The notes: generated from the letters alone by a model not told the origin. Positions 17,420 to 62,322 are shown, counted from the stretch's first letter. The stretch: 64,000 nt of DNA from an uncultured Fidelibacterota bacterium (GCA_913040915.1 CAJWHW010000005.1:14663-78662), one strand, 5' to 3'. Numbers and translations: made by a program.

Positions 17420-18304
17420 TTAGATTATGATTTGTTTGAATTCGTTGTAAGTATAGAAGGTAAGATCAATAGACTCTTCTAAAATCGGAAGAGATTGCAG
17501 TCCCTGACCACCAAAAACAACTTTTATTCCTAAATCATGTGCCAAACTAACGATAGATTTTGTCTGCTTTTCTGTTTTCTGTAGGTTCTTTTTTACAGTT
17601 GCCATACAGCATTGCATGTTACAGAGATAAAAAACGATTATATCTATTTGCTTCTTTTTTAGAATGGCTTGTAGGTCTCCTAACTCAGCATGCGACCCGG
17701 TATTTAGTACGTTATATCCATAATGTCTTAAAATAATTTCAGACATTACGACCCCAAGATCCGGCAGATTATCCTCAAAATTAATACAGAGTGCAGTTTT
17801 ACCATTGAATTTACCGTTGGGCTTATTTTGGTTTAAATTTTCTGCTACCCTGGTTATTATCTTCCTACTGATAAATGTTTCAACCTGGGATAAGTAACCT
17901 TTTCTCAACGAATTTTCAACGATCATACTCGCTGGTTCAATGACTTCATCACAGATCTCTTCAACTTCGACTCCTTTTAGATAAATCCCATTGATAATCG
18001 TACTCACACTAAGATCATCAGATTCAAGGCTTGCATCTGCTAATATTACAGCTAATTCTTTGTAGCTCTTTTTGTTTATCAGGCTGTGAATCTTTTTATG
18101 ATCCCGATTATTGATACCAAGTTTTGTATTTTTCCCAGCTTTTTCTTGAGCTTTGTAAAAATCACGAATATTTTGCATTGTGAACTTTCTATGACCGCCT
18201 GCAGTTTTAGTACAACTTAGTTTATCATTATCTGTCCAGCGTTTTAGGGTAGAGATATTCACACCCAATATTTCTGCAACTGTTTTTGAATTAAGATATC
18301 TCAT
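17420..18304 (-). CDS. BldC/Xis-type (MerR-like) wHTH regulator fused to a degenerate cobalamin-binding-like sensor (CarH/LitR architecture)
   Basis: N-terminal LNSKTVAEILGVNISTLKRW...KTAGGHRKF; four-helix cap (EICDEVIEP); Rossmann part LG...ILRHYGYNVLNTG...VVFGGQG. Confidence 0.75.
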   Translation of the reverse strand: MRYLNSKTVAEILGVNISTLKRWTDNDKLSCTKTAGGHRKFTMQNIRDFYKAQEKAGKNTKLGINNRDHKKIHSLINKKSYKELAVILADASLESDDLSVSTIINGIYLKGVEVEEICDEVIEPASMIVENSLRKGYLSQVETFISRKIITRVAENLNQNKPNGKFNGKTALCINFEDNLPDLGVVMSEIILRHYGYNVLNTGSHAELGDLQAILKKKQIDIIVFYLCNMQCCMATVKKNLQKTEKQTKSIVSLAHDLGIKVVFGGQGLQSLPILEESIDLTFYTYNEFKQIII

Positions 18305-18345
18305 GAATAAATATACTTAAAATGGCCAATAAATTAAACTAGTTA

Positions 18346-18363
18346 ATGAGCGTTATGGGCTTT
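18346..18363 (-). promoter_or_regulatory. Tandem 9-bp direct repeat, site A (candidate operator, autoregulation)
   Basis: ATGAGCGTT-ATGGGCTTT on + strand, 42 bp upstream of the regulator start; -10-like TAATTT 9 nt downstream on the minus strand. Confidence 0.7.
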
Positions 18364-18444
18364 TTGATATAAAAATTAAATTATCTACTATATAGCATAA
18401 ACAAAAAAAATTAACTAATGTAAGACTTATTTATTATTTCAGTT

Positions 18445-19086
18445 TTACTTTGTCGATACAATTAAGACATCAACAGTGATATCATCATAAATCAATTTAT
18501 CACCTAAATTTTCAAAAAACTTCCCAGAGCGAAATCTCACATCATAAAGTGAACGGTTAAATATGACTTGAGCATTGGCAGTCAGCTTACCATCTGAATC
18601 TTTTATTTTTGATATGAAGGATATCGGGTGAGTAATATCTTTAATAGTTAATTGGCCATCAAATTTTAATTGTTCACTTGAAAACTTTTTTTCATCCCCC
18701 TGAAATTTTAAATAAGCATTAGGGTATTGGTTTACATCAAAAAAGTCAGGGCTTTTTAAGTGACCATCTAATTTCTGCTTTCCCCTACCCGTAAGATCAG
18801 TAGTATTTATAGTTGACATATCTATTTCAATATCACCACTAATCATTCCATTATCATTTATTGCTATTCTACCACTTTTAATGTTAATGGTCCCATAATG
18901 TTCTTTGGTAGATACTTCTTTTCCAGTCCAGATTAATTTTGATTCTACGACATTCACAATATAATCTCCGGTACTTAATGGAAAGTGTTTCACAGATTCG
19001 GGTGCTGCTTTATTATCTTTTTTCTGGCCACAGCCATTAATTATGAAAGATGAAATTGTTAATAACAGTAATAATTTTTTCTTCAT
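18445..19086 (-). CDS. YceI-family lipoprotein (polyisoprenoid/lipid-binding)
   Basis: Lipobox IINGC, S...W.G, H.GTI, IDM.TI, LDGHLKSPDFFDV..YP.A, GQLTIKDIT. Confidence 0.9.
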   Translation of the reverse strand: MKKKLLLLLTISSFIINGCGQKKDNKAAPESVKHFPLSTGDYIVNVVESKLIWTGKEVSTKEHYGTINIKSGRIAINDNGMISGDIEIDMSTINTTDLTGRGKQKLDGHLKSPDFFDVNQYPNAYLKFQGDEKKFSSEQLKFDGQLTIKDITHPISFISKIKDSDGKLTANAQVIFNRSLYDVRFRSGKFFENLGDKLIYDDITVDVLIVSTK

Positions 19087-19115
19087 TTTAGGTTTCTCTT
19101 AATTAGTATTTTTAG

Positions 19116-19430
19116 TTAAAAAAATTTATAAAGATTGGTCATTCTGTTGCAAGGGTGTTCACTAAGAATTGTCACCTTATCATTATAATTTCCAAGCCAC
19201 TCCCAATCAATTTCGTTCCAATACTCTGACCCTGTATATCCTTCTGTCTAATAATCTCTATATGTAAAAAATGAGCTTACCACTCCGTCACCAGCAGCAG
19301 ATTCCATTCTCACTTCATATCTACCATATAAATAACTATTTAATGTTCTTAGTTCTCCTCCACTATAAGGTTTTTGACTTAAACATATATTAATAAATAA
19401 AAGTATGATAATTAAAAATCTAGAAAGCAT
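19116..19430 (-). pseudogene. Truncated GH16 (lichenase-like) glucanase pseudogene
   Basis: Signal peptide, then KPYSGGELRT...YGRYEVRM...GVVSSFFTY; TAG at 19248-19250; the frame continues to catalytic WNEIDWEWLG, then similarity is lost near 19173. Confidence 0.8.
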
Positions 19431-19434
19431 GATC

Positions 19435-20412
19435 TTATTTTTTCTTAAACATACGTACATAATCAATTAAATATTTACTTGGGAATATAGAATTATCAAT
19501 CCCTTGTTGACCACCCCAGTCTCCACCAATTGCAAGATTGATAATTATAAAGAAAGGGTGGTCATATGGCCACTTTTCATAATCCATATTTTCATCTTTA
19601 CTATATTCAAAATATTGTTGATCATTAAAATAGCCTTTGATTTTTGTTGAATCCCAATCAACCGCGTAAGTATTATATTTGTTTTCAATTTCTTGAGAGT
19701 AATAAACACCTTGTTGTTCTGTACCAGATAAGTCACCCCAAAGATTGTTATTATGAAGACTAAAATATATGTGATTTGGATCGTACCCAACGTGTTCCAT
19801 AATATCAATTTCGCCACATTTTGGCCAACCAACTAAATCAATATTCCGACTCAACATCCAAATCGCTGGCCAAGTTCCTATGCCGGATGGTAATTTTGCT
19901 CGAATTTCAATATAACCATACTGAATTTCTAATTTATCTCTTGTATTAACTCTACCAGAATAATAGTTAGGGTCATCAGGGTTGAAAGGATTTTCCTTTT
20001 TTGCTTTAATATTCAAATTTCCATCACTTAGATATACATTTTCTGAACTTTTAGTATATGATTGAGCTTCATTATTTACTACTCCTGCAGACATTACTTC
20101 TATATTCCAATAGTCAAGGTTTAAAGAATTTCCATTAAACTCATCATTCCAATAATAATCGTATCCTTGAGGAATATCATCATCGCTAATACAATTCCCA
20201 TCATCAATTGTAGCTTTGGAATCATAGTTTCCGGCTGATGAATCAGTACATCCGAAATAATCACAATCCCCGTCATCAATTGAAGCTAATGAATCATAGT
20301 TTATTGCTAATGAATCGGTACACCCAATCAATGGTTGATCTTTTTTCAGGTTTTCAGGATCTTCACAAGAAAAAAAGAATATTGGTAATAATGTGAAAAG
20401 AAAATTAATCAT
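19435..20412 (-). CDS. GH16 laminarinase-type lipoprotein with two GCTD Cys repeats
   Basis: Lipobox FFSC, GCTD..A.NYD..A..DDG.C x2, WNDEF, NNE.Q.Y, WPAIWML, GEIDIME, NLAIGGDWGG, DYVR. Confidence 0.9.
   Translation of the reverse strand: MINFLFTLLPIFFFSCEDPENLKKDQPLIGCTDSLAINYDSLASIDDGDCDYFGCTDSSAGNYDSKATIDDGNCISDDDIPQGYDYYWNDEFNGNSLNLDYWNIEVMSAGVVNNEAQSYTKSSENVYLSDGNLNIKAKKENPFNPDDPNYYSGRVNTRDKLEIQYGYIEIRAKLPSGIGTWPAIWMLSRNIDLVGWPKCGEIDIMEHVGYDPNHIYFSLHNNNLWGDLSGTEQQGVYYSQEIENKYNTYAVDWDSTKIKGYFNDQQYFEYSKDENMDYEKWPYDHPFFIIINLAIGGDWGGQQGIDNSIFPSKYLIDYVRMFKKK
20191..20325 (-). repeat. Two tandem 24-aa GCTD..A.NY...A..DDG.C repeats (coding)
   Basis: GCTDSLAINYDSLASIDDGDC / GCTDSSAGNYDSKATIDDGNC; a third copy GCMDPNACNYNSDATVDDESC at about 31149-31212. 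Confidence 0.85.
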
Positions 20413-21895
20413 GAGATGTCATTTTTGATCCATAATCTAATAGGTGGTCATCTGTCAAAATTGGAAAAGGTGGCTCTAGAGAATGATATGCTTGATTTGA
20501 ATACATCGCAATTAAATCAATAGATGATAAGTGTATTGTTTCAAATTTTCCTGTGTTTATCTTAATCTTTTTTGAATATTTAACTTGAAGCGAGTCTATT
20601 TTATTAATCAATGAAGGATTAGGTAATTTATTTTCGGTCGTGTTTAAATCAATCTGCAGTCCCCCAGTATAATTCTCTTTAATGATTACGGCCTTAACAT
20701 AATCATGCCATTTCTGTGTTGTTTGTATAACATTGGCATCTTCATCAATCCCTAATTCATATCCTCTCTGGGTGATATGCATATCACGAATAAGATCTAC
20801 AATCGCTAGCTTTAATTCGTTTGTGAATTGATTTGGAATAATATTTTTTTTTCGAAAAACAAGAGGATGTTTTTTTATTAAAGCCATTAATTCATTAAGA
20901 GTCCAATATTTTCCATCATGATATAAAATATTATCATTTCCCATCTCATCGATTTGATTTAAAAATGTAAATTCCATTTTATTATCTAATTCCCAAATAT
21001 GGTTTTGAATTATATTTTCCTTTTTAGAACGTTCAATCATATAAACTTTAGCTACTTTTTCTGCGAAATTCTTATAATTAATTGTATTAAATATTATGTT
21101 TTTACCTCGCATTATATCAGAAACATACTCTGAATATTTATTTTTTGCTTTTTCATCAAGCATATCATTTTTCACTGATTCCCTAATTTCCTGCTTTTGT
21201 TTCTCTGTAATATTTACACGTTTAGTCCAACCCATAATCTCTAAATAAAAAACTGTAGAATCAGGTAACTTATAAGGTCCGTAGATTTTATTTAATTCTG
21301 GACCTAGTACATACAGAAGTTCTTTAACTTGATTTATCATTGGGTCGTTGAAAGTCAAGGTTTTATTGGTAAGTTTTTCTTCTATACCTAATAAATAGGC
21401 TGTCTCTCTTAAAGTATTTTCACCTGCAAAAGTCTCAAGGCTTTTTAGATCTCTTTCTTTACAAAGTATGAATTCTAATTCATATGTCCTGTTTCTTAAC
21501 TCGATACGATTCAAAAGGCTTTTTTTATTTATTTTAACATGATCATAACCATATTTCTTCAACATGGCATGCCTCATTGCCTGCTCCTTTTGGCCTATAA
21601 TGAAATATTTTTGGGTATCATTTATTTTCAAATCGGACCGATCAAATTCAAGAGCCAATAGCTTTTCAGCAATAAGAGAATTCAAAGCTATTTTTTTATG
21701 AACGTAATTGTCTCCTATACAATAGATCGGTCTCAAAGAATATTCACATCTCTTCAAAAAATCATTGACAGTAATAACTTTATCTTCAATTTTTGCTAAG
21801 ATTATTTCAGAATCAAGATTTACTTTAGGAGATTTATTGCATGAGATGTAGATTAAAAATAATAGACTATTAAATATATATAATTTTCTAATCAT
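20405..21895 (-). CDS. Hypothetical lipoprotein, PrsA/SurA-like chaperone scaffold
   Basis: Lipobox YISC; ILAKIEDKVITVNDF and LNSLIAEKLLA resemble SurA/PrsA N-domains; no clear intact PPIase motif. Confidence 0.55.
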   Translation of the reverse strand: MIRKLYIFNSLLFLIYISCNKSPKVNLDSEIILAKIEDKVITVNDFLKRCEYSLRPIYCIGDNYVHKKIALNSLIAEKLLALEFDRSDLKINDTQKYFIIGQKEQAMRHAMLKKYGYDHVKINKKSLLNRIELRNRTYELEFILCKERDLKSLETFAGENTLRETAYLLGIEEKLTNKTLTFNDPMINQVKELLYVLGPELNKIYGPYKLPDSTVFYLEIMGWTKRVNITEKQKQEIRESVKNDMLDEKAKNKYSEYVSDIMRGKNIIFNTINYKNFAEKVAKVYMIERSKKENIIQNHIWELDNKMEFTFLNQIDEMGNDNILYHDGKYWTLNELMALIKKHPLVFRKKNIIPNQFTNELKLAIVDLIRDMHITQRGYELGIDEDANVIQTTQKWHDYVKAVIIKENYTGGLQIDLNTTENKLPNPSLINKIDSLQVKYSKKIKINTGKFETIHLSSIDLIAMYSNQAYHSLEPPFPILTDDHLLDYGSKMTSHD

Positions 21896-21915
21896 CCAAT
21901 AAAATAGGTTGATAA

Positions 21916-22992
21916 TTAAAATAAATTAAAACGAATCGTTATCAGGGAAACATCACCTAAAAGGCCTACGGACTGATAAGAGTAATCAATTCCAACATTT
22001 TGATTATTAACAAATTTTCTATCAAAACCAACGCCATACGTTATTGTTGAAAAAGGTAATTCATAATCAAATATGGATTGATTTTCATTTGCTTGTGTAA
22101 TCCCTAAACCTTTTACGCCAGCTCTAAGGTGGAATGTATTTCCTCCCCCGATTGTATAACTGTATTGTAACCCTGAATTAATTGATTCACTATTATTATT
22201 TGGGTGCAAAACATCAACTGACATTATAAGAGATTGGTTATTTTTCGCAATCGGTTTAATTGAAGCACCTAATCTAAATATGAGTGGGAGCTCCCAAGAT
22301 TCTGTTCTGAATTGACCTATAACATTATCATAATTACCATTCTCATTTTCAAGTATATCTATAGGATTGATCAAATCGATACCATCATACTTCATTTTTG
22401 TACCGTAGTTTGATATACTCATACCAATTCTTATTCCATCATTTCTATTCTTTGTTCTAGAAAAATAATTGGTTTTAATAATTACTCCTATATCAACAGC
22501 GTTAGCTCTTGCTGATGAATGCCAAATATTAGAATTAATCATCTTTAAGGATACCCCAAAAGAGAACCAATTAACTAAACTCCTAGCATAGGCGATTGCT
22601 GCTGCTAATTCATTTGCCGAGTAATACTCTCCTGTACCATTTTGGTTTTGTACATTTGTCACTTCTATAGAACCATAATCAAAATCAGTAAACCAAGCAC
22701 TTATAACACCATAATTACCCATATTGAATGCTCCTGCTGTAGAAAAATGTTTTATGCCTGCAACCCAATTTTGAGATGAAATACCTATTTCTAATCCATT
22801 TACATTTGCCAAACCCGCAGGATTCCAATAAGCAGATATTGCATCTTCCGCTAAGCTGACATATGCTTCTCCCATTGCGACAGCATTACTGCTGATCCCA
22901 ATTTCTAAAAAATTTGCAGATGTCGTCCCATATCTATATTGTGAATAAATTATATTTCCAAGGAGAATAATAAAAACAAATATATTTTTCAT
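21916..22992 (-). CDS. PorV/PorQ-family (UPF0164) outer-membrane beta-barrel
   Basis: A.FLEIG...AVAMGEAY, AYWNPAGLA, A.DIG, IGMSISNYG, LP..FRLG, LRAG, terminal aromatic barrel strand. Confidence 0.85.
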   Translation of the reverse strand: MKNIFVFIILLGNIIYSQYRYGTTSANFLEIGISSNAVAMGEAYVSLAEDAISAYWNPAGLANVNGLEIGISSQNWVAGIKHFSTAGAFNMGNYGVISAWFTDFDYGSIEVTNVQNQNGTGEYYSANELAAAIAYARSLVNWFSFGVSLKMINSNIWHSSARANAVDIGVIIKTNYFSRTKNRNDGIRIGMSISNYGTKMKYDGIDLINPIDILENENGNYDNVIGQFRTESWELPLIFRLGASIKPIAKNNQSLIMSVDVLHPNNNSESINSGLQYSYTIGGGNTFHLRAGVKGLGITQANENQSIFDYELPFSTITYGVGFDRKFVNNQNVGIDYSYQSVGLLGDVSLITIRFNLF

Positions 22993-25900
22993 TTTATTAT
23001 TGCAAACTTTCCGATTATTTCTTCATTGTTCAGAGTATTATTGGGGTAATTTGGCTTAACGTGAAACAAATACATCCCTGCTGCAACTTCTAAGCCTTCT
23101 TCATTAAGTAGGTCCCAATGCACCATTCCGACGTCAGGTCCTGCATTATTGTTCGAAATAATAGTTTTAACTTTAACTCCACTTGGTGTAAAAATTGTGA
23201 TTTTGCATTCAGATGGTATATTTGTAAACATAATTTTTCTAGGTTGATTCAAATATGGATTGATGACTGCTTCTTCCATTGCATTCGTTCCAACATAAGG
23301 ATTAGGAACAACTCTTACTTTTTTTAAATCATTATTTAAATTATCTACGTTAATTGGTTTTAAAGAATCAATGGCAAACTCAAATGTATCAGTATTCCAA
23401 AAATTTCTATTCCAGCTTATTGCATATCGTGAATCTGTTTTGGGATAATCGATACTATCTATATTGAAGAAATCCATAATAAATAATGTTCCCTGCCAAC
23501 TGTTCATCGAATCAATTTGGCCAACAATTATACGATCATTTTTTAAATCAAATTCTTGATCGAGACTCCAGGATGATCCCTGATAGTCTTGCACAACCAA
23601 ATCCATCAAAGTGTAGTTACCATTATCATCTAAAATGGATTTATTTATCACATAAAAGGGAAAAGACTGATCTAGAATTATCCTATTTGGGAACCACAAC
23701 CGATTGTCAAATTCATCATAAATACCAACCGGACTTCCAACTTGGGATGTATAACTTATATCACTTGTAAAAACAATTTCGCAATCCCATGGTATAAGTT
23801 TTGACTCCCTCGATGATATGGTAATATTAAAATCACCAGAGTTAGTTGTTATCCAACCAGTATTAAGTGTATCTAATTGGGGGATGGTAGAATTTTGACC
23901 AATTTTGAGTTGCAGGCCTTCAAACACATCGGAGAAAACAATGTTATTAAGTGACCATGTCTCTGTTGATTCATTATATAACAAGTTTGTCCCTGAATAA
24001 TTAGTACGACCTGGATTTAATGCATCAATCGGACTTTCTTTATAGACTATTTGTCCTGTAGTTTTATTAAATACAGAATACCCCGGATTAGTAAAATAAA
24101 TTGGTAAACTTTCTTCATTATACGAAGTATCAAAGTCAAAAGTGACCATGTACTTATTTCCAGGTTTTAATTCACTTCGAGATGCAAGGTTAGGTTCGAT
24201 TTTACCCGTCCCAAGAATATTGTTATTTAATGAATCTATACTTATTGTCGGATCAACATAACCAGCAGCATTTGCTCTCGGTGTCACAATTGCAATGTTT
24301 TTTCCAATCCCACGAATGTTGTCAAATTCATCTATATCAATAACAGTGTTATTCTCTGATGGTGCAATTCCCGGGCCAATATCGGGGGCTCCATAATCAT
24401 AGGCAACTATAGCATAATAATAAGTCCTACCATTCTGAACATTATCATCTTTAAAGTAATGCTGGATTCCAGTATTATCACCAAGATTATAAGATGCACC
24501 ATTGACAAGACCATATTCAGTAAAACCACTGTATTCATTAATTATATCACACTGGAATATGGGTTTTAAAAACATGGGCGTACCGTATCCATCAGTGATA
24601 ACTTCAGAATCAGAAAAGTATTTATCTGTTGATCGAAATAATTTATATCCTTCAAAATCATTTACATTACCTAAAAATGGGTCACGCGTTAATTTATCGG
24701 CATCATCATCCCACGTTAGCATTACGAAGCCATCTCCCGCTGAAGCTGTAAGCGTTGGTGTTTTAGGTGGCTGTGCAAACCTATAGTCTTTTTCATATAT
24801 GGTTTGTACTATTTCTTTTAATTTGAATAATGCAGGTGCACTATGGCTTGATGAATTAAGTCCTTCCAATGGGTCATAGGAATGAATCTCAGCCATAGAG
24901 ATCCTTTCAGTTTTTCCTCGAAATAATGGAAAGGGACCTGATGCAAATAGTTCAACTAAATTTGAAATCGTTCCGTAAAACTCCATTAATGAATCAGCAG
25001 ATACTAAATCCCACATAACGTCATCATTACGAAACCATGGGCTACCAGGAGGGGCAGGATGTTGATCAAATATAGGAAAAAGCTGAAAGGATGTTAAACC
25101 AACCATATCAGATTCTGAAACATCTGTAACGGCAAAATTTGGTTCACATCCAATAGATTCAACATAATCTGGTCGATGATTTCCCTCGCCTTCATCAGGT
25201 CCTGTATAGTTGATTTCTAAAGGACCTACACCATCAAGACCAACATCATCACCAGGATTTTCACCTAAATCATATATACCATTTTCATTAATATCTTCTC
25301 CGTCTTGCCAATCCTGGTCTTCATCAGCATCCCAGTGTGGCTTTAGTTCAGCTGGACTTACTTTATAAAATTCTAAAAATTTATTTATATCATCAATACC
25401 ATCGTAAGGACCAACGAATGCATCTGCAATATTATCTCTTTTTTCATCGATGATACCATCATCATCGTTATCAATTCCATCATAGGCCAAGCCAGGACTC
25501 TCTAAATACGCAAATCCCATTATTCCTGGCACAAGCCCCGAGAGACCTATTCCATTTTCATCCCAAGAATAAGAAAGGTCAAGCAAATCATTGAAATAGC
25601 CTATCTCATCAGAGCCATCTCCACCTATTGCATTATCAACCCAATATCCAAAACAAACTTCAGGTAAATCATACTCCGAAATATTTGAAATATTATATTC
25701 CCAGAATATTGCATCTCTTGCCTGTGGATTATTCCATTGAAATCCTCTAGTTTCAACTCTTAGACCTAAACCACCCCACGGGCTTCCCCCTTGTATAGAT
25801 GTATTTTCATCAATTATTTTACTACTATATCTAGGAAAATATTTGACCATATCATCATTACCTAAATACTCTAGATCATGAGCATCATTAACGACAAAAT

Positions 25901-29317: not shown

Positions 29318-29363
29318 CGAACAAATTTTTCATATCAAATAATATACTATATTATAAAAAAAA

Positions 29364-29402
29364 CAAAAAAAAAGGGCAGATTTATTAGCCTGCCCATTTT
29401 TT
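29364..29402 (-). terminator. Hairpin/terminator between the 972-aa gene and the TBDR
   Basis: GGGCAG(10 nt)CTGCCC stem with an A tract before and a T tract after. Confidence 0.65.
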
Positions 29403-29409
29403 CTAGAGT

Positions 29410-51925: not shown

Positions 51926-51934
51926 ACGAAATAA

Positions 51935-54810: not shown

Positions 54811-55950
54811 CTAACTATTTCTTTTTACATATATCATAAAGGATGAAGAATAATTACTGTAAAAAACACCAAGTCCATCACCAAAATTTGAGTCTGGCAA
54901 TATATAGATATTTTGGCCAACGGGATCTCCGCTAAAATAATTAAAATAAGATTCACTAGTTGCCTTGAAGGTCATAATATGGTAACCATAATAATCAAAA
55001 TATAGCCACATGATTTGTGTAGGAGTTTCTTCTACGTTCCATTGCCATGGATTTATACGATATGGTGTATTATTCTCATCACGAAGGTAATTACCCTTCC
55101 AGATACGAAATCCAAGTGTGGTGTCATAGATCAGATTGACAAAAGCACTATCTCTTATGCTATTATAATTATAATCAAAAAATGCTCCACTATCAGGATC
55201 AATGGTTGAGCTTAACGTATCTAATGGTTCCAGACCTCTCACATTTGATTCGAGAGCATAACTTAGAATTTTAATTGTTTGAAAATTATCTGAATCAAAA
55301 TCAACTCCAAAGTAAGGGTAACTGGCAAAACTCTGTGTAAAGCAATCTCCAAACCTGAATTCAACAGAATCTACATTTATATTGTTCTGGAGTACAAAAT
55401 CTTCAGGATTATCAATCAACTGGCTTAGTTGTTCAATCGAGTAGCCTTCTAGATTTTTTACGTCAACCATTTTAGTAGGAATTACTTCACCATCTGAACA
55501 TTGATAATCACCTAAATCTGCTGAAGTAAGATTTAAGATACTTGGCACTGTAGTTATTGCAATAATAGAATCTTGTTCATGAATTACGGAGAGTTGGTAG
55601 GTCTGGCCTGATTGAATGATAAAATTCATCCAAGCAGTTAATTCTTCATCTGTTGAGGTTTGTGAGAGTGGGAAATATTTACCCGTTCCAACATTATTAA
55701 ATGTCAATTTTTCCATTGTTGAGTCATTGATAAGTTCGACAATTGCACCATCTACCCAGAGTGAATCCGATAAAATATCTTCATCTATTGTGGCAGTTCT
55801 TGAAACTAAAACTGTATCTAATACTGGTAAACCTGCAGTAATTGATGCAAAAACAACGAGTTTTTGCTCATATTTTTCAATGCTATCGTTTAAATCACAG
55901 GATTGAATAATTATGCTAAACATTATTAAAGTCAATAATTTTAACCTCAT
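54811..55950 (-). CDS. DUF4249-like lipoprotein, TBDR partner (likely start 55950)
   Basis: Lipobox IQSC, EQKLVV.A.I, A.TTVP, C-terminal SN..DGLGVF; directly downstream of the TBDR. Confidence 0.65.
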   Translation of the reverse strand: MRLKLLTLIMFSIIIQSCDLNDSIEKYEQKLVVFASITAGLPVLDTVLVSRTATIDEDILSDSLWVDGAIVELINDSTMEKLTFNNVGTGKYFPLSQTSTDEELTAWMNFIIQSGQTYQLSVIHEQDSIIAITTVPSILNLTSADLGDYQCSDGEVIPTKMVDVKNLEGYSIEQLSQLIDNPEDFVLQNNINVDSVEFRFGDCFTQSFASYPYFGVDFDSDNFQTIKILSYALESNVRGLEPLDTLSSTIDPDSGAFFDYNYNSIRDSAFVNLIYDTTLGFRIWKGNYLRDENNTPYRINPWQWNVEETPTQIMWLYFDYYGYHIMTFKATSESYFNYFSGDPVGQNIYILPDSNFGDGLGVFYSNYSSSFMIYVKRNS

Positions 55951-55952
55951 GA

Positions 55953-58325
55953 TCAAAACTCCCAAGTAAAACCAATGGTCGGAATAATTGGAAATAGGCT
56001 GATTATTTCTTCCCTTATTTTTCCTTCATCGGGTTCATCAACATTTGGCTCACCTGGGTCAGGCTTACCATTACCTGCCCCTATTTTATCTTCTCCAACA
56101 CCAATATCATGCTGGTTTATATCCCAATCATCATCGTCATCCAAACCATTATATGTATTACCTAACCTGTACACCTTTCTAAATGGATTCTTACGATTGA
56201 ATGTGTTAATTATTTGGAAGTAAATATCAACGTTCGTTTTACCAAATTTAGCATGATACACTGCACCAATATCTAATCTGCTATAGGGTTCATATCTAGC
56301 TGAGTTTCTAGACCCAGGTATTGTACGAAAGATTTCTTCCGGACTTTCAGGAAATTTTTGAATATAATACCCTAATATTGGTGTGTAAGCCTGACCTGAT
56401 TGCAGAGCCAATCGCCAGTTCACTTCCCACTTATCATTAAACTGATAATTTCCGAGCGCACTGAAAGCATGCGTCCTATCCCAATTAGTAAAATATTCTT
56501 TTTCACCATCGTCATAAATGCTATTCATTATTTTTCTTGATACAGAGAAAGTATAAGCTAGCCAGCCACTGAGTTTACCCGCCATTTTTTGTCCAAAAAT
56601 TTCTAATCCATATGCGTAACCGTTAGCAGGTGTAACGATAGATGCCAAACTTTCATCATCTACCTGGGCATCTGTTGATGACCTTGTTTCTTCATAGGTT
56701 AATAAGTTTTTTAAATCTTTATAATAGCCTTCAATCTGAAGCTTGTATGTACTTCTAAAATATTCTTCATATCCCAGAACAACCTGTATAGACTTACCTG
56801 GATTCACAGAGTTGTCCACAGCGATCCAGTTATCAAGTATTGGAGCATTGAAATCATCCTGGAATGTGCTGATAAATTGATGGTAGTTACCTACAGAAAA
56901 GTTGATATACCTGTCATCTGTAAGTAAATATTTAATCCCAAGACGCAAGTCAGGGTACAAAGAATCTGGATAAACACTGTATCTATTTATTCTGATTCCC
57001 GGTTCAATGATAAATACATCATTTTTTTCATTCTTGGCTTTAAAGTAAAAAGCAGACTCACTAGGAGATGTTATAATTTCAAACTGCGTTGAATCTTGAA
57101 ATTTATTAGTGTATTCAAATCCTAAATTTTTAAATTGATAACCAAATTTGAATTTCGTTTCAGATGATACAAACCAAGAGAAATCTCCTGAAAGAGTTTT
57201 ATCATCAATTTCATTATAACTTACTAATCCTCCGGAACCACCTAGACCAAAGCTTGTAAAGAACATACTGTTCGCAGCAAGAAAGTTTCCAATAAATTTT
57301 TCATTGAATACACGTCTATAATGCCCACTTATCGTATTATTACCCCATCTACCATCAAGGCCAAAGGTATCGAAAATAATATCATCGATTCCTGAATAAT
57401 AACTAACAGAGATCCTGTCTTTAGGTGAAAGATCAGAAAAAATATGTCCTTGGATATCGTAAAAGTAATACGGGGGAATATTATCGGCTGTACTGGCAGG
57501 TAGAACCTTGGGAAGTAGTATATCAAAATATGTTCTACGGCCTGACAAAATCCAGGCTCCTTTGTAAGAGGGGCCCTCGAGGGTAGTCTGTGCCGAGAGC
57601 AAAGATAAATTTGCTTTACCGTTAAACTTATTTCTATTTCCTTCTCGACTGATGACATTTAGAACTGCTGATAGTCGTCCACCGTACTCTGCATTGTAAG
57701 CCCCCTTAATCAATTCTGCTTCTTTTACACCGTCAACAATAAAGTTAGAAAATACACCACCCAAGTGAGATGGATTATAAACAGTAATACCATCAAGCAT
57801 AATCAGATTTTGGTCAGTATTACCCCCTCTTATAACAAGACCGGTGCTGTATTCTGAAGTTGTTAGAACACCAGGCAGGGCTTGGATAGTACGGAATAAG
57901 TCTGGCTCAGCGAGTGCAGGAGCAGATTTCATCATCCTAGGGCTTAAATTTATTTTACTTGGCTGTATATTATATTTTCTCTGGATTTTTTCGGCTGTAA
58001 CATCGACTTCATTCAACTCAAGAAGTTCTTGTTTAAGTTGGATATCCAGATTAAGAGATTCACTTCGGCCTATTATGATTGATTGTTTAGAGAGCTCGAA
58101 TCCTACATATGAAACAATGATATCATATTCTCCTGATGCTATATCTTGTAAAATGTAGTATCCATTGTAATCTGTAGCCATTCCTTGACCTGTCTGCTGA
58201 ATAAATACATTAGCACCTATTAAAGCTTCTCCGGATGAAGAGTCAGTTACAAAACCTGTGATAATTCCACCTTGAGCTAATAAAATTGATATATGTAATA
58301 AAAATGATAGAAAAATTCTTGACAT
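55953..58325 (-). CDS. TonB-dependent receptor
   Basis: ITGFVTD..SGE.LIGANV, EPDLFRTIQALPGV, IRGG..DQNL..LDG..VYNP.HLGG.FS, AEYGGRLS.VL, GWLAYT, WDRTH, IPTIGFTWEF. Confidence 0.92.
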   Translation of the reverse strand: MSRIFLSFLLHISILLAQGGIITGFVTDSSSGEALIGANVFIQQTGQGMATDYNGYYILQDIASGEYDIIVSYVGFELSKQSIIIGRSESLNLDIQLKQELLELNEVDVTAEKIQRKYNIQPSKINLSPRMMKSAPALAEPDLFRTIQALPGVLTTSEYSTGLVIRGGNTDQNLIMLDGITVYNPSHLGGVFSNFIVDGVKEAELIKGAYNAEYGGRLSAVLNVISREGNRNKFNGKANLSLLSAQTTLEGPSYKGAWILSGRRTYFDILLPKVLPASTADNIPPYYFYDIQGHIFSDLSPKDRISVSYYSGIDDIIFDTFGLDGRWGNNTISGHYRRVFNEKFIGNFLAANSMFFTSFGLGGSGGLVSYNEIDDKTLSGDFSWFVSSETKFKFGYQFKNLGFEYTNKFQDSTQFEIITSPSESAFYFKAKNEKNDVFIIEPGIRINRYSVYPDSLYPDLRLGIKYLLTDDRYINFSVGNYHQFISTFQDDFNAPILDNWIAVDNSVNPGKSIQVVLGYEEYFRSTYKLQIEGYYKDLKNLLTYEETRSSTDAQVDDESLASIVTPANGYAYGLEIFGQKMAGKLSGWLAYTFSVSRKIMNSIYDDGEKEYFTNWDRTHAFSALGNYQFNDKWEVNWRLALQSGQAYTPILGYYIQKFPESPEEIFRTIPGSRNSARYEPYSRLDIGAVYHAKFGKTNVDIYFQIINTFNRKNPFRKVYRLGNTYNGLDDDDDWDINQHDIGVGEDKIGAGNGKPDPGEPNVDEPDEGKIREEIISLFPIIPTIGFTWEF

Positions 58326-58331
58326 AAATGA

Positions 58332-59288
58332 TTATTTCCCTAAATAATTTAAATTTTCAATATTAAATGGGGTTGGTTCTATTTCATATTTTTCGAAAAT
58401 TTCTTTTGAATCACATATACTACCCTTCACAAGGTCATTTAATTGGTCTTTACCTGCAGGGAACCACTCAAATCCATCAAGTAATCCAGCTATGGTAGTT
58501 ATTAGAGAAATTGGAGTTGGTAACATGAAAACTCTTTGCCCCGTTGCACTTGCTATTGATTTGACAATTTCATTCCACGTAACATCGCGCAAACCACCAA
58601 GTAATATTGTTTGGCCAATAGTACTTTCATCAAATAGAACTTTAACAAAGATCTTAGCTACATCCTTTACATGTATCATACTTAAAGCGTAATTGCCAGA
58701 ATCTAGCGGATTTAATCCAGTGAAAAATGAAGGAGCGGGAAAGGGTAGAAACTTTGGGTATGGTACTAGATTTAGCATTAGCTTATCAAGCATCATGCAA
58801 AATTCAGGTCTATCTTCACCACGAGGATCACCAAATAATGATGACGGACGCATGATTGTCCATTGAAGTTCTGTATTTTTAATTACTTGTTCTGATAAAA
58901 ATTTTGCCTGCATATAATTCGAACCATTTGGATCAGGGCTTGCTCCAAGTGCACTCATTAATAGAAAGCGTTTTACACCTAATTCTTGGGCAATTTCTGC
59001 AATTCTTTGACTTCCTCTAAATTGTAGTTTGTCATTTGTTAAGTCTCTTTTTGGGAATTCTCTGATTAAAGCAATCAGATAAATGACCGCTTCACATCCA
59101 TTAAGTGTCTCTCTAATCGCGTTATCATCTTTTATGCTGCCCTTTACCGTTTCACATTTTTCTTGTTGGATTACCTTACTTTCAGAACCGCCTCTTACAA
59201 GTAATCTTGGGATATGTTCATTATGAATCAATTCATCAACGATGTAAGAGCCGACATAGCCGGTGCCACCAAAAATAGCCACTTTCAT
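58332..59288 (-). CDS. Atypical SDR, NAD(P)H-binding (complex I NDUFA9-like)
   Basis: FGGTGYVG, RFLLMSALGA, Y..AK..SE, IMRPS..FG, IHVKDVA. Confidence 0.85.
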   Translation of the reverse strand: MKVAIFGGTGYVGSYIVDELIHNEHIPRLLVRGGSESKVIQQEKCETVKGSIKDDNAIRETLNGCEAVIYLIALIREFPKRDLTNDKLQFRGSQRIAEIAQELGVKRFLLMSALGASPDPNGSNYMQAKFLSEQVIKNTELQWTIMRPSSLFGDPRGEDRPEFCMMLDKLMLNLVPYPKFLPFPAPSFFTGLNPLDSGNYALSMIHVKDVAKIFVKVLFDESTIGQTILLGGLRDVTWNEIVKSIASATGQRVFMLPTPISLITTIAGLLDGFEWFPAGKDQLNDLVKGSICDSKEIFEKYEIEPTPFNIENLNYLGK

Positions 59289-59479
59289 GAAAGATCAACC
59301 TCAACAAAATCATTTAAATTTCTATTAAAAATATTTTTTGAGAAAAATTCATTGATTATATTTTTAAGATCTTCAGACTTGTATATCTTCGTAAGATTCT
59401 CCTGAAGTGAAAAAAAATCAAATCCTTTCGTGAAAGGGGGCTTTATAACTTGACTAGCTTTTATTTTATAAATATTCAT
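59285..59479 (-). pseudogene. Internally deleted SRPBCC-family gene (64-aa ORF)
   Basis: N-terminus MNIYKIKASQVIKPP..KGFDFFS.QENLTKI resembles the SRPBCC start (Q.i..p..evfdFF..P.NL..ITP), joined to a C-terminal-helix-like DLKNI segment; far shorter than a full domain. Confidence 0.55.
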
Positions 59480-59521
59480 TAAGAAAAATTAAAGTTACTA
59501 TAATGTATAAACAATAATGTT

Positions 59522-59539
59522 ATGAGCGTTATGAGCGTT
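59522..59539 (-). promoter_or_regulatory. Tandem 9-bp direct repeat, site B (candidate operator)
   Basis: ATGAGCGTT-ATGAGCGTT, 43 bp upstream of ATG 59479; a degenerate third unit AATAATGTT at 59513-59521. Confidence 0.78.
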
Positions 59540-59702: not shown

Positions 59703-61061
59703 CTAAAGTGATTTGAGTAAGTTCATATTCGCAATATACTCACTTATATCAAATTTATTTTTACAACCATTATAACTCATATATCTTATTTTCCCATATA
59801 CAGGACGTTCAAACCAGGGACGGTCATGTACTCCTCCCAGACTCCAAGCGATACCTGTATAGCCATTTGCATCACGACCATCTAGCTCATACTTATCATT
59901 CAAATCTATTGCCGTTTGTAACGCTATTTCGGGAGAAGGGCTCCACTCTAAAATCTTTTTAGCCCAATACATTCTCATGTAAGTATGCATTTTCCCTGTA
60001 TACACCATTTGCAATTGGGCAGCATTCCATAGGTCATCATGAGTTTCTGCAGTTTCAAAAGCTTCTGGAGGATATAGATATTCCCGTTTATCATTCCTGT
60101 GATAATAGAGACTTTCCTTTGCCCAATTAGGAAACCCATCGAAGGAATCATAATTATTATTATAAAAACAAAAATTAGCAGCCAATTCCCGCCGCACTAT
60201 AAGCTGCTCTAAAATACTTTTGTTTTCAATTGTATCAATTTGACTGAGGTTTAACGCCACGCGCTGTGAAGAGATGTGACCAAAGTGCAAAAATGGACTC
60301 ATATTAGAAAGAACATCTTGGTTTGGGTTATTGCGATGATTGGTATAATTTTCAATCGGGAGCTTAGAAAAATATTCTAATTGTTTCTGAGCCGCTTTTT
60401 CTCCTGGTAACAACCAGTCCACCGGTACAACACTATTATCAACATTCAGCTTCTTGTAAATATTTGGCCAATCAATATCCCAACCGGGTGAATTAATATT
60501 CACAGAGTGCCGTTTCAATTTAGGAATCTCTGTTAAAAATTCACCTAGGTGTTTTTGTATTTTTGGCCTGATGGTGTATGCTCCCCACTCCTGCTTTTCG
60601 CTTGTCACCCAAATAGGTACAATATTATTGGAATCAACTATATAAAATGGAATATTAATGGAGTTTGAAATTTTCTTGGTCCTCCGGCGATGGAAACGAA
60701 GCGGTGAAAAATCTGTGACCAAAATGGCAATCTCTTCTTTTAATATTAGCTTTGGAAGCTCATTTTTTGGCGTACCATTTAGTAGACGAAAACTTATATT
60801 GAGTTTTTTTAATGATTTTTCTGTTTCATATAGCCCCTGAAATAAAAAATCATATTGTCGGATATTTGAACTGGGAAAGTCACCGATATAATTAAAACAT
60901 ACCATGAGAGAATATCCATTTTGCAATGCTAAGTCCTGTGCATGTAACAAAGCCCAATTATCATAAACTCTTTTGTCACGCTGCATCCAGTATAGTACAG
61001 TTTTACCTTTCAGAGAACCAGATTGTAATTGTTTTATTCGATTTGGATGGACAACCGACAT
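59703..61061 (-). CDS. phrB: Class II CPD DNA photolyase
   Basis: VLYWMQRD.R..DNWAL, LVTDFSPLR, GAYTIRPKI, SPFLHFG, EQLIVRRELA.NF, MHTYMRMYWAKKILEW, DGRDANGYTG. Confidence 0.93.
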   Translation of the reverse strand: MSVVHPNRIKQLQSGSLKGKTVLYWMQRDKRVYDNWALLHAQDLALQNGYSLMVCFNYIGDFPSSNIRQYDFLFQGLYETEKSLKKLNISFRLLNGTPKNELPKLILKEEIAILVTDFSPLRFHRRRTKKISNSINIPFYIVDSNNIVPIWVTSEKQEWGAYTIRPKIQKHLGEFLTEIPKLKRHSVNINSPGWDIDWPNIYKKLNVDNSVVPVDWLLPGEKAAQKQLEYFSKLPIENYTNHRNNPNQDVLSNMSPFLHFGHISSQRVALNLSQIDTIENKSILEQLIVRRELAANFCFYNNNYDSFDGFPNWAKESLYYHRNDKREYLYPPEAFETAETHDDLWNAAQLQMVYTGKMHTYMRMYWAKKILEWSPSPEIALQTAIDLNDKYELDGRDANGYTGIAWSLGGVHDRPWFERPVYGKIRYMSYNGCKNKFDISEYIANMNLLKSL

Positions 61062-61073
61062 GATGGAATTAAG

Positions 61074-61787
61074 TTACTTTTTAGCTATTGAAAGACCGCC
61101 ATCAACTGGAAAAGTTTGTCCCGTAATCCAATTATTATTTGGATCAAGCAGAAACTGCAGCATACTGCTTATGTCTTTTGGTTTTCCAACAGAACTAGTT
61201 ACGTGAAGATTTTTACTGTATTCGAGACTGGATGGATTATTCATGATAGCAGAAGATAGCGGTGTATCAACAAGCCCTGGTGCTACAGCATTGAAACGGA
61301 TTGATTTTCTCGCATAGGTTATTGATGCAGATCTGACTATTGCTTCAATACCTGCCTTGGCCGCAACAATTGCTTCATGGTTAGGTAAACCAATACGCAC
61401 TGCCGCAGTCGACATTAATATAACAGATGCATTGCTTAAAACTTTACCTGCAGCACGGACAACTGCGTAGGCACTTTTTAGGTTTGTAGAAATAATATTA
61501 TCAAATTCTTTTTCTGTTATGCGATGTGGTGACTTTAATAAAATACTACCTGCTAGATTAACGATACCATCTACATTACCTAATATTTTTTTGCCATCAG
61601 AAATAAAGTCCAAGGTATTATTAAACGATGTTGCATCAACTGAAGCGGACTGCAGATTTCCTTGACGAGGATATGCCAAAAGGTTTTTATGATAACCAAG
61701 AAAGAGCTTGTTTCCCTTGGCTTGCAGATCCGCTACCAGTTGAACACCGATACCACCGGCGGCACCAATTATAATGTAGTTATTCAT
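61074..61787 (-). CDS. SDR oxidoreductase (photolyase-associated type, lacking catalytic Tyr)
   Basis: GAAGGIG, NLAGSI.LK, STAA...GLPNHEAIVAAKA, NAVAPGLVDTPL, WITGQ..PVDGG. Confidence 0.88.
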   Translation of the reverse strand: MNNYIIIGAAGGIGVQLVADLQAKGNKLFLGYHKNLLAYPRQGNLQSASVDATSFNNTLDFISDGKKILGNVDGIVNLAGSILLKSPHRITEKEFDNIISTNLKSAYAVVRAAGKVLSNASVILMSTAAVRIGLPNHEAIVAAKAGIEAIVRSASITYARKSIRFNAVAPGLVDTPLSSAIMNNPSSLEYSKNLHVTSSVGKPKDISSMLQFLLDPNNNWITGQTFPVDGGLSIAKK

Positions 61788-61959
61788 TTATATGGTATAA
61801 AGCTTGATAAATAACACTGCTTGAAGAGGCCACACCACCCGCTAATTTCCAGCCTTCACTGAGCAAAAACCCTACGGCTTCTACGAGATCTATTTTATCT
61901 TCGTTGAAAGCAGATACGATACAATAATTTTTGTGTTTTATAACATTAACTTTTGGCAT
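61780..61959 (-). CDS. 59-aa small protein, DUF1737-like
   Basis: Not in ORF track. MPKVNVIKHKNYCIVSAFNEDKIDLVEAVGFLLSEGWKLAGGVASSSSVIYQALYHINE*; V...L.EGW.L.G...YQAL pattern; its stop overlaps the SDR start. Confidence 0.7.
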   Translation of the reverse strand: MPKVNVIKHKNYCIVSAFNEDKIDLVEAVGFLLSEGWKLAGGVASSSSVIYQALYHINE

Positions 61960-61961
61960 AC

Positions 61962-62265
61962 TTAATACGATTTTTTATCTAATATTTCAATAAAGTTCAC
62001 ATCCAGATCTTTTGTATAAATATACCCGGTTATATCATGATAGTATTGGAATTTTGGATGCATTTTTATCCACAATAGCAAAATAATTAGGATGCTGATC
62101 TAGTGTAACTAAGTCCAGATTTATATTATTAAACATCAGGACGGAACATATTTGATTTTCGAGAAGTACATCACAATCAAAACGCTTTTTGTAATACTCA
62201 AGTAAACTTGAAATATTTTCCACTTGGATAGAAACATGATCAATAATTGAAAGAATATTTCTCAT
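61962..62265 (-). pseudogene. Frameshifted VOC/glyoxalase-family gene
   Basis: IDHVSIQVENI...YY N-terminus ends at TGA 62035; the VOC C-terminus GYIYTKDLDVNFIEILD (cf. Y..DPDGN.IE) continues in another frame to TAA 61962. Confidence 0.7.
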
Positions 62266-62304
62266 AACATATTTATTATTTTCAAATTAATTATAACAAA
62301 ATAT

Positions 62305-62322
62305 ATGAGCGTTATGAGCGTT
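62305..62322 (-). promoter_or_regulatory. Tandem 9-bp direct repeat, site C (candidate operator) next to an extended -10
   Basis: ATGAGCGTT-ATGAGCGTT, 40 bp upstream of ATG 62265; minus-strand TGTTATAAT at 62298-62290. Confidence 0.8.

Follow-up and report, generated by a model that had tools for sequence, protein, structure and literature searches.

A tandem repeat stands before the gene for a CarH-like regulator and again, about 41 kb away, before operons that include a photolyase, in a 64,000-nucleotide stretch of DNA (the window) from a member of Marinimicrobia/SAR406. Does the repeat belong to that regulator, which genes does it mark, and what might the regulator sense? The initial annotation of the window took the arrangement for an autoregulated operator-regulon for photoprotection. 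The genome assembly of the window (G000) is 1.86 Mb in size and 85% complete. A literature search, mostly of open-access main text, returned no paper on either the regulator or the motif.

Repeat Sites in the Window and Beyond

The motif consists of 18 bases, formed by a 9-mer in tandem. Three copies were found again in the window, all of them intergenic, on the minus strand, and in the same orientation. Site A (18346–18363) is an imperfect tandem with 2 mismatches, located 41 nt upstream of the ATG of the regulator as a putative autoregulatory site. Sites B (59522–59539) and C (62305–62322) are perfect and are located 42 and 39 nt upstream of the ATG of an SRPBCC remnant and a VOC remnant, respectively. 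The gaps of 42, 43, and 40 nt given earlier for A, B, and C had been counted inclusively. A fourth site, overlooked in the initial annotation together with its operon, is just beyond the window on the adjoining contig. This site D (G000:C12:6787–6804) is perfect, and it is found 42 nt upstream of an ATG at the head of a furan-fatty-acid-type operon that extends from contig C12 into the window.

The window contains 3 matches with no more than 3 mismatches where 0.01 are expected, and 0 of 100 shuffled windows reached 3 matches. Only 4 sites in the whole assembly have at most 3 mismatches or a score above 13 bits. A chance repeat was rejected, with 66 matches found in 24 of 61 relatives versus 1 control match; about 6 of the 66 are in coding DNA or otherwise unlinked and are chance-like. 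The column counts from 174 sites read AWAA-CGCT-C twice, and there is little information outside the two 9-bp units except for an A/T flank. A third repeat unit over the −35 element was considered, and its sequence signal was absent.

Genes Downstream of the Sites

The genes downstream of sites B, C, and D in the window are all encoded on the minus strand. Site B is followed by an SRPBCC remnant of 64 aa (59285–59479), recognized by tblastn against intact relatives with 167-aa orthologs, an NAD(P)-binding atypical SDR (58332–59288; Pfam NAD_binding_10) that had been labeled "NDUFA9-like", a TonB-dependent receptor with a plug domain match (55953–58325), and a DUF4249-like lipoprotein (54811–55965) with a weak match below the Pfam cutoff. 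In several relatives, a TonB-dependent receptor follows the SDR or the regulator. Site C is followed by a VOC/glyoxalase remnant (62035–62265), identified by tblastn against intact relatives and frameshifted near its 3′ third, a conserved small protein of 59 aa (61780–61959), a short-chain dehydrogenase/reductase (61074–61787), and a class II CPD photolyase (59703–61061; TIGR00591, 577.8 bits versus a cutoff of 550). The earlier labels for the photolyase, SDR, TonB-dependent receptor, VOC, and SRPBCC genes are correct, and that for DUF4249 is so weakly, but the 59-aa protein that had been called DUF1737 has no match in Pfam or NCBIfam. Similar small ORFs are found after VOC in relatives.

The portion of the site-D operon in the window consists of the 3′ end of a fatty-acid desaturase (63864–64000), which continues on contig C12 with a 55-bp overlap, a DUF1295 membrane protein (63010–63867), and a SOUL heme-binding protein as the final gene (62431–62994). 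Upstream of the desaturase, contig C12 contains the genes for DUF2878, an unnamed 232-aa protein, a lipocalin, an FAD oxidoreductase, DUF1365, and two CMAS/cfa methyltransferases, and site D. Three RNA runs from three studies, with small shares, provided contigs that match portions of the B and C operons with high identity and have no indel at the VOC frameshift; these contigs cover no repeat site and reveal neither strand nor start. No match to rhodopsin, cryB, DUF2256, GPx, crt, or the 93-aa Cys-protein was obtained in the 85%-complete G000. The lack of rhodopsin, cryB, and crt matches in this assembly and the two broken target genes are observations that run against the model presented below.

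Conservation in Relatives

The motif or a variant was found in 65 of 301 genomes of the class, and the regulator in 52 of these 65 and in 21 of the 236 motif-free genomes, counts that overstate the association because kin are not independent. The other 13 motif-positive genomes have no regulator match. In 9 of these 13, a second search at E values up to 1 was also empty; in several of those traced, the cluster is cut off by the end of a contig at the expected position of the regulator. The reversed-pattern control gave 0 matches for the main motif across the 301 genomes and is not independent for the variant because the variant reads identically backwards. In the streamlined genus g26, rhodopsin is found in 22 of 38 genomes and photolyase in 18 of 38, and the regulator and motif in none.

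Conservation upstream of orthologs, proposed in the initial annotation as a check, was confirmed at a nearly fixed distance. A forward site was found 40–43 nt from the ATG of the regulator at all 30 of the distinct Cys-clade loci with a KRW helix that were examined (35 were found), and 16 of these 30 are outside of the PWM training set. In a held-out test on 79 metagenome homologs chosen solely by their protein, 53 had the motif nearby with a score of at least 16 bits, as did 0 of 237 shuffles. Of 34 other orthologous loci, 27 have a class II photolyase immediately after the regulator, and thus the 41-kb link between regulator and photolyase observed in the window corresponds to an operon link in relatives.

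The motif precedes genes for photolyase, cryptochrome, cfa/ufa, crt, peroxidase, and rhodopsin, although in G003 and G017, which have the regulator, no site accompanies the rhodopsin genes. A GTDB-wide exact scan gave 50 loci. After 17 loci of the Marinimicrobia cluster were set aside, 33 were read: 19 are in coding DNA, 11 are intergenic without an evident link, and 3 (L220, L221, and L259) fit the regulon. The recognition helix and the motif covary in 57 of 61 classifiable rows, with 4 exceptions, but the independent pairs number only 2 (sign test, p 0.5), and the covariation is suggestive of cognate binding rather than proof of it. The fixed-distance site before the regulator, the co-occurrence, and the photoprotection targets agree with the autoregulated photoprotection regulon as originally proposed, and the repeat is very likely the operator of the regulator at 17420–18304.

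Promoter Geometry

The predicted σ70 promoter of the regulator (minus strand) has a weak −35 at 18333–18338, a 17-bp spacer, and a −10 of TATATT at 18310–18315, which is 5 nt before the ATG; the transcript would be leaderless. This −10 position is conserved in 34 of 36 regulator-type sites. The promoter predicted for site B (minus strand) has a −35 of TTGTTT (59509–59514) and a −10 of TAATTT (59486–59491), separated by 17 bp. For site C (minus strand), there are two readings, TTGTTA (62294–62299) or an extended −10, TGTTATAAT (62290–62298), which is perfect. One RNA contig extends to 62277, upstream of the start expected at site C by the usual geometry, which weakly favors the extended −10 or read-through. 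The elements TAATTT and TGTTATAAT, reported 9 nt downstream of the repeat, are indeed present, but the placement of the repeat over the −35 is unsupported at sites A and B and possible only at C.

Among 90 forward sites from 7 target families, TAnnnT was found at +29 to +31 in 84 and at +8 to +10 in only 10, and TTG was found at +5 to +7 in 56. The best σ70 −35 was located at +5 to +8 in 44 of 108 sites (shuffle mean of 5.8, maximum of 12). In the usual geometry, the repeat ends 5–8 bp upstream of the −35, and the elements downstream of it are σ70-like. On these −35 and −10 positions, overlap of the repeat with the −35 was rejected as the general arrangement. The fixed gap, the single orientation, and the weak −35 of the regulator's own promoter are typical of class II activators and speak against a repressor.

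Other sites cover the +1 or the 5′UTR, and these include proteorhodopsin promoters. The rhodopsin promoters of genus g13 read TTGACT-18-TATAAT, and their site follows about 31 nt downstream; at the DUF4397, DUF6370, and PsiE-like promoters, the site directly follows the −10. The rhodopsin sites, in a reading that covers 20 of 32 loci, are downstream in family f1, upstream in G156 and G201/G243, on both sides in G117/G112/G175, and within photoprotection operons in family f9. Among homologs with the B12 signature, divergent genes (ECF sigma, crt) have near-consensus TTGACA promoters, and in 12 of 17 cases such a promoter is flanked by a pair of sites 62–66 bp apart. The upstream member of the pair is reversed and is still about 7 bp from the −35, and thus the gap is independent of orientation.

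Architecture and Sensor Residues of the Regulator

The regulator (17420–18304, minus strand) contains 294 aa, with a BldC/HTH_17-type wHTH (residues 3–52), a four-helix bundle, and a Rossmann domain in the CtMerR/CarH fold. The N-terminal winged helix was matched by Pfam MerR_1 (28.1 bits, cutoff 21.6) and HTH_17 (28.8 bits, cutoff 27). The predicted structure (pLDDT 82) has the four-helix bundle and a Rossmann cobalamin-binding fold, and this model matches 8JBS/8JBT, photocobilins, AppA SCHIC, and CarH; the ESM Atlas gave only leads below 0.9. Across 69 rows, T19, R22, W23, G36, and R39 are invariant, whereas H38 is found in 65.

The AdoCbl ligand positions (G-x-x-W, E-H, and the lower His) are occupied in the regulator by E130/L133, T143-F144, and P181. 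The signature W is replaced by L in 44 of 45 rows of the clade and by V in 1, and the lower axial His is replaced by P in 45 of 45. The full AdoCbl signature is retained in 24 sister rows, with one His unread. The Pfam B12-binding model gave 24 bits versus a cutoff of 32.1. Because the B12-binding residues are gone, the regulator is not predicted to be a B12 photoreceptor of the CarH type. The earlier description as BldC/CarH-like is thus appropriate for the wHTH and the fold but not for CarH-type B12 sensing, where the loss of the ligand residues had been overlooked. Adaptation to a B12-free life is unsupported; genes for MetH-sized and mutase-type B12 proteins are still present in G000.

An insertion of 8 residues with C228-x-x-Q-C232-C233 is near-invariant in the SAR406 clade of the window, and the E177/P181/D182 loop is invariant. 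This clade would most likely sense through the insertion, as an Fe-S cluster, a heme thiolate, or a thiol switch. A more elaborate reading is offered tentatively, as a possibility short of an even chance. An Fe-S cluster or heme would occupy the empty cobalamin pocket (C-x-x-Q-C-C with E177/P181/D182) for B12-free sensing of light or singlet oxygen, with BldC-type head-to-tail DNA binding and two-sided bracketing of promoters. Proteorhodopsin, photorepair, and furan lipids would be controlled together across the surface-ocean SAR406, and operators of this repeat type would also serve the AdoCbl-dependent CtMerR-like family.

Proposed Mechanism and Alternatives

We propose that two BldC-type winged-helix domains would bind head to tail on the two 9-bp units (phased AWAA-CGCT-C) and that the full-length protein would oligomerize via its CarH/CtMerR-fold domain. 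In the dark or reduced state, the oligomer would repress housekeeping-sigma promoters from a position immediately before the −35 (the UP-element/αCTD zone, about −60 to −43) or, alternatively, from over the +1 and 5′UTR, with some promoters held simultaneously on either side. The repressor would be released by light or photo-oxidative stress, which would induce its own gene, photolyases, cryptochrome, the cfa/ufa furan-fatty-acid-type operon, peroxidases, and carotenoid genes, and likewise proteorhodopsin in several relatives. The sister clade has retained the AdoCbl photoreceptor signature, with the same putative operator; the SAR406 clade to which the window belongs has lost the B12 ligands and gained the C-x-x-Q-C-C insertion. 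It is reasonably probable that the regulator is such a repressor, released by light or oxidation. The sign is favored because sites follow the −10 or bracket near-consensus promoters, and because CarH and class II LitR are repressors.

The near-invariant forward orientation and fixed 5–8 bp gap of the upstream sites, together with the weakness of the −35 in the leaderless promoter of the regulator itself, would also fit a dual regulator that binds in the light or oxidized state. It would activate its own gene and the photolyase, ufa, VOC, and SRPBCC promoters, where the site lies just upstream of the −35, and repress where the +1 is covered (f1 rhodopsin, DUF4397, and DUF6370); BldC both activates and represses (PMC6428758). 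However, dual control would give rhodopsin opposite signs across lineages, the gap to the −35 is no different for reversed sites, and many upstream-site promoters already read TTGACA or TTGACT. Furthermore, homologs with the AdoCbl signature share the geometry and would be expected to bind DNA in the dark. We consider this alternative rather unlikely. It is improbable that a regulon that is real in relatives is decaying or rewired here, with the sites as relics or reduced to an oxidative-stress-only role. The VOC frameshift, the SRPBCC truncation, the displacement of the regulator from the photolyase, and the missing matches to rhodopsin, cryB, DUF2256, GPx, crt, and the 93-aa Cys-protein are compatible with decay, but three sites are perfect and the fourth keeps the exact spacing, the regulator, photolyase, and whole ufa operon are intact, and the assembly is only 85% complete.

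The 13 motif-positive genomes without a regulator match, and the ECF sigma and MarR genes among the targets, leave a very small probability that a different transcription factor or an alternative sigma binds the repeat and that the CarH-like gene is merely one target. Against this, the motif tracks the regulator family into other lineages and gene contexts, the downstream elements are σ70-like, and the repeat fits the binding design of this wHTH type. BLUF and the ChrR cupin (Cupin_7; control positive in 5 of 14) were found in 0 of 5 genomes searched, and a LOV motif was absent from the 85%-complete G000, where the best PAS_9 match is a PAS-UbiA-like fusion; an upstream BLUF, LOV, or ChrR sensor was set aside within the scope of these searches.

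The motif is very likely the DNA docking site of a light-sensor-like regulator of DNA-repair and membrane-protection genes and, in relatives, of proteorhodopsin. For an abundant uncultured marine lineage, the pair provides candidates for the master regulator of the light response, proteorhodopsin included, and for its operator. The repeat is also a candidate operator for the widespread CtMerR-like photoreceptor family, whose DNA site was left open in the literature. The residue changes point to a natural swap of the B12 chromophore for a cysteine-based sensor in the same fold, which is relevant to photoreceptor evolution and to light-controlled gene switches.

Comparison with Known Systems

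CtMerR from Chloracidobacterium thermophilum (PDB 8JBS/8JBT; PMC11796333) is the best sequence match among solved structures (E 1.8e-20, residues 5–268) and the best fold match to the modeled regulator (Z 20.4, rmsd 2.6 Å, 220 residues). Both have the same wHTH, four-helix, and Rossmann layout, and the recognition helix is ESSVKRW in CtMerR versus NISTLKRW in the regulator. CtMerR binds AdoCbl via G-x-x-W, E-H, and the lower His204, whereas the regulator has the substitutions given above and the 8-residue Cys insertion. CtMerR is converted from tetramer to monomer in the light, and its DNA site was left open ("alternative DNA-binding site"; PMC11796333). AdoCbl binding and a green-light response of the CtMerR type would not be expected of the regulator, from which the ligand residues are absent. 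CarH/class I LitR (Thermus, Bacillus, and Myxococcus) has the same sensor fold as the model (Z ~14) and shares tandem direct-repeat operators and carotenoid and photolyase targets. The CarH operator overlaps the promoter and is built from three or four repeats of 11 bp, nAnnTnnACAn (PMC8156234), versus two 9-bp units here; the regulator reached 29.9 bits with the whole-protein CarH model NF052513 (NCBIfam; cutoff 400) and, unlike CarH, is without the B12 signature.

The RpoE-ChrR singlet-oxygen regulon of Rhodobacter sphaeroides (PMC7074977) has overlapping targets (phrA, cfaS, and RSP_1090/1091-type) but is under ECF sigma/anti-sigma control, whereas the promoters here are σ70-like and the ChrR cupin was found in 0 of 5 genomes searched. 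Class II LitR (PplR/PmlR, Pseudomonas; PMC9758184) is, like the regulator, a B12-independent LitR relative, and it represses phrB, ufaM, FAD oxidoreductase, SDR, and cryB genes; PmlR2 has one site at the −35 and one after the +1 (PMC9758184). In class II LitR, no more than the four-helix bundle is kept, the recognized site is TGTACA-N12-TGTACA, and a short LOV protein brings about release (PMC9758184), whereas the regulator has a complete Rossmann domain and a direct-repeat site, with no LOV motif found in G000.

BldC from Streptomyces (PDB 6AMA/6AMK; PMC5859096) is similar to the wHTH of the regulator (E 3e-4 to 5e-4), and the BldC family model NF033787 gave E 3.3e-8 and 33.2 bits versus a cutoff of 77. 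BldC, whose regulon is developmental, consists of a single stand-alone domain of 68 aa, whereas the regulator is a two-module protein of 294 aa. The E16-R22 dimer salt bridge of BldC is lost in the regulator, where R22 aligns to G14 and K26 to S18, and the hydrophobic interface residues L13, V15, and W23 are retained. BldC binds 9-bp repeats, AATT-XXXX-C, via T27, R30, W31, G44, H46, and R47 (PMC5859096), which correspond to T19, R22, W23, G36, H38, and R39 of the regulator. BldC represses whiI from −50 to −80, and the two proteins would share a position of action upstream of the promoter and 9-bp direct repeats in which four AT-rich bases are followed by N4 and C.

Results

The tandem 9-mer repeat (18 bp) was found three times in the window with up to three mismatches, against 0.01 expected, at 18346-18363 (site A), 59522-59539 (site B), and 62305-62322 (site C), and the positions reported in the initial annotation are thereby borne out. 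In the whole assembly (G000; 1.86 Mb, 85% complete), only four sites were found at this threshold, and a PWM scan gave only four sites above 13 bits. The fourth, site D (G000:C12:6787-6804), is a perfect repeat that precedes genes for DUF2878, an unnamed 232-aa protein, a lipocalin, an FAD oxidoreductase, DUF1365, two CMAS/cfa methyltransferases, and a desaturase. The first 55 bases of contig C12 overlap the end of contig C5 (the right edge of the window); past the desaturase, the operon runs on from C12 into genes for DUF1295 and SOUL, and then comes site C. Because this overlap joins operon D to the window, the operons behind sites D, C, and B follow one another in a single island, 41 kb from site A and the gene for the 294-aa regulator (17420..18304, minus strand). 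No match for rhodopsin, cryB, or crt was found in this 85% complete assembly. The VOC gene is frameshifted (61959-62265) and the SRPBCC gene truncated (59285-59479); since RNA contigs from three studies align to the VOC region without indels, the frameshift seems to be real in the population. Elsewhere in the window, a glycan-uptake cassette (19435-32328) encodes GH16, SurA-like, and PorV-like proteins, an unannotated protein of 1167 aa, a TonB-dependent receptor, and a CBM48/T9SS-tail protein.

The motif is rare in the genome, enriched over its reversed control, and conserved before regulator orthologs. With at most two mismatches, 66 matches were found in 24 of 61 relatives, versus 1 for the control. 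Across 301 class genomes, 48 had the strict degenerate pattern (control, 0), 18 a CGTGC variant, and 73 a match to the regulator profile. Of the 65 genomes that have at least one of the two motifs, 52 also have the regulator, compared with 21 of the 236 that have neither; these genome counts, like the locus counts below, are descriptive since the kin are not independent. The profile search gave no match in the other 13 motif-positive genomes, and in 9 of these a search at E ≤ 1 was likewise empty. For G026, G193, G274, G001, G260, G218, and G139, which have the motif and no regulator match, the sites or the cluster are located at contig ends, and contig breaks offer an explanation, not a proof, for the absent regulator in several genomes. 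In genus g26, rhodopsin (22/38) and photolyase (18/38) were found, and neither regulator nor motif in any of the 38 genomes.

Close homologs of the regulator carry the name Neomarinimicrobiota. Close orthologs numbered 35; at each of the 30 distinct loci examined among them, a forward site precedes the start codon by 40-43 nt. Outside the window, the regulator gene has class II photolyase as its immediate downstream neighbor in 27 of 34 loci. In a held-out set of 79 metagenome loci chosen by the regulator protein alone, the motif was found at 16 bits or more in 53 (shuffles, 0/237). At L220, from a record titled Bacteroidetes bacterium, the exact repeat stands between a regulator homolog and a DUF4397-like gene.

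Pfam assigned HTH_17/MerR and a sub-threshold B12-binding match to the regulator. The closest solved structure by sequence is CtMerR (E 1.8e-20), followed by BldC, and the AlphaFold model (pLDDT 82) best matches the fold of CtMerR (Z 20.4, rmsd 2.6 Å), then photocobilins, the AppA SCHIC domain, and CarH. In a midpoint-rooted tree of 69 homologs, 45 rows group together (support 100/99), apart from the 24 that have the full AdoCbl signature. In the clade of 45, the signature Trp is replaced by Leu in 44 and the lower axial His by Pro in all; E177 and D182 never vary. C228 (45/45), C232 (44/45), and C233 (43/45) sit in an insertion of about 8 residues. Judging by the alignment and by what is generally known of this fold, the insertion would follow strand 3 of the Rossmann domain, beside the loop that bore the cobalt His. 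Of the best 150 matches among 50%-identity representatives, 95 were full-length; 64 of these show the W..EH signature, and Cys-type proteins lacking it number only 3, so the B12 form is the widespread one. We infer that the Cys clade lost the B12 ligands, rather than that its sister gained them. G000 retains B12 enzymes. Four genomes (G110, G112, G137, and G180) encode two regulator paralogs each, every paralog with its own upstream repeat variant; three of the four pair a B12-signature with a Cys-clade paralog.

Of 90 forward sites, 84 have a -10 element 29-31 nt past the repeat and 56 a TTG 5-7 nt past it; the -10 position proposed initially (+8..10) is used in 10, approximately background. 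In an unconstrained sigma70 scan with weights of our own, 44 of 108 sites had their -35 at +5..8 (shuffles: mean 5.8, maximum 12), and in 15 the -35 lay over the repeat. From these placements the repeat spans about -60 to -43, and the earlier proposal that it covers the -35 region does not hold generally. It is weakly consistent with site C, where the extended -10 at +6 is perfect and one RNA contig extends to 62277; the geometry of this promoter is ambiguous. Promoters A, B, and D look leaderless.

Sites of a second class, reversed, begin at or after the -10 and leave about 19-29 nt to the start codon of rhodopsin (family f1), DUF4397, and DUF6370 genes. For B12-signature homologs, two sites 62-66 bp apart flank strong divergent promoters in 12 of 17 cases (2 more rows being selection artefacts); the upstream site is reversed, and its distance to TTGACA remains about 7 bp. 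The rhodopsin promoters of family f20 are flanked likewise, with the two sites 68 bp apart. In four metagenome loci (L324, L338, L340, and L352), B12-signature homologs form a divergent pair with an ECF-sigma-like gene, behind which a TonB-dependent receptor is encoded; the arrangement is like a LitR-LitS cascade.

Genes adjoining 175 sites of at least 20 bits, 1 of them inside a long ORF, were clustered; the sites are not a random sample, as loci were collected around sites or regulators. The candidate targets include the regulator (38), a 93-aa Cys protein (13), DUF2878-ufa (12), rhodopsin (12), two SRPBCC-like families, DUF4397 and related secreted proteins, DoxX, crtI-like, DUF2237, DUF6370, AhpC, photolyases, and MarR (the MarR and PsiE-like labels are our own sequence reading). 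Genes for cryB, DUF2256, glutathione peroxidase, pyrimidine-dimer glycosylase, and DUF523-DUF1722 were found within the same clusters; the glycosylase and DUF523-DUF1722 (RudS-like) genes recur in the regulator cluster in L186, L187, L185, and L078. The 93-aa protein, with two CxxC motifs, is the first gene behind the strongest site-bearing promoters and heads a VOC-SDR operon (L069:12278-12559 in G003, with 12 similar genes in other loci). It has no Pfam or NCBIfam match, was absent from the search of G000, and is a candidate partner or effector.

In family f9, the rhodopsin and regulator genes are no more than about 4 kb apart. Among 20 rhodopsin loci examined, 8 have a site of at least 20 bits within 300 bp, 5 more have variant repeats seen by eye, and those of G003, G017, G047, and G227 have no site. 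In two loci of genus g49 (L179:4772-5341 and L192), a perfect reversed site is located 37 nt before an AhpC peroxiredoxin gene; these genomes also have sites before crt-rhodopsin and a photolyase, and no regulator match. In a record titled Ignavibacteriales (L221), a four-unit repeat array precedes a secreted lipoprotein without an NCBIfam match that looks fasciclin-like.

Discussion

The signal is best guessed to act at the Cys insertion, where an Fe-S cluster, a heme thiolate, or a thiol switch is the candidate sensor. Alternatively, the signal could arrive via a partner anti-repressor, as with CarS or a LOV protein; BLUF and ChrR cupin domains were not found in 5 genomes searched, nor a LOV motif in G000 (85% complete). 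A PAS domain is fused to a membrane protein that by our own reading resembles UbiA/MenA prenyltransferase (L390, contig C35 of G000), and a PAS match in an open frame of similar length was found in all 5 genomes.

The bound regulator would probably switch promoters off at all site classes. Reversed sites at or after the -10 could, from their position, serve only repression, and a single logic in which bound means off would fit every site class and known precedents. BldC is described as repressing from -50 to -80 (PMC5859096), and PmlR2 as having one site at -35 and one past +1 (PMC9758184). A dual activator and repressor is possible, as BldC is reported to do both (PMC6428758).

We conclude that the repeat and the regulator form a real operator-regulon, a variant of the CarH/LitR type, with binding predicted. 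No literature on this regulator or motif was found, subscription papers and supplements aside. Re-phased, the repeat reads AWAA-CGCT-C twice; each BldC protomer binds one 9-bp repeat, AATT-XXXX-C, via R30 and the H46 wing (PMC5859096), and the regulator keeps the residues matching these contacts. RRW-helix regulators are accompanied by the CGTGC variant in 12 of 13 classifiable cases and KRW-helix regulators by the CGCTC form in 45 of 48, an agreement that amounts to only 2 independent pairs on the tree (p 0.5); the paralog pairs of G137 and G110 differ in helix and motif accordingly. The regulator is predicted to read DNA like BldC and to work like CarH, without being a member of either group. 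CarH operators are 11-bp repeats (PMC8156234), whereas the units here are of 9 bp. CtMerR binds AdoCbl, and its tetramers come apart into monomers under green light, with the DNA site described as unknown (PMC11796333). The candidate target set shares members with two described regulons, that of class II LitR in Pseudomonas (PMC9758184) and that of RpoE-ChrR (PMC7074977).
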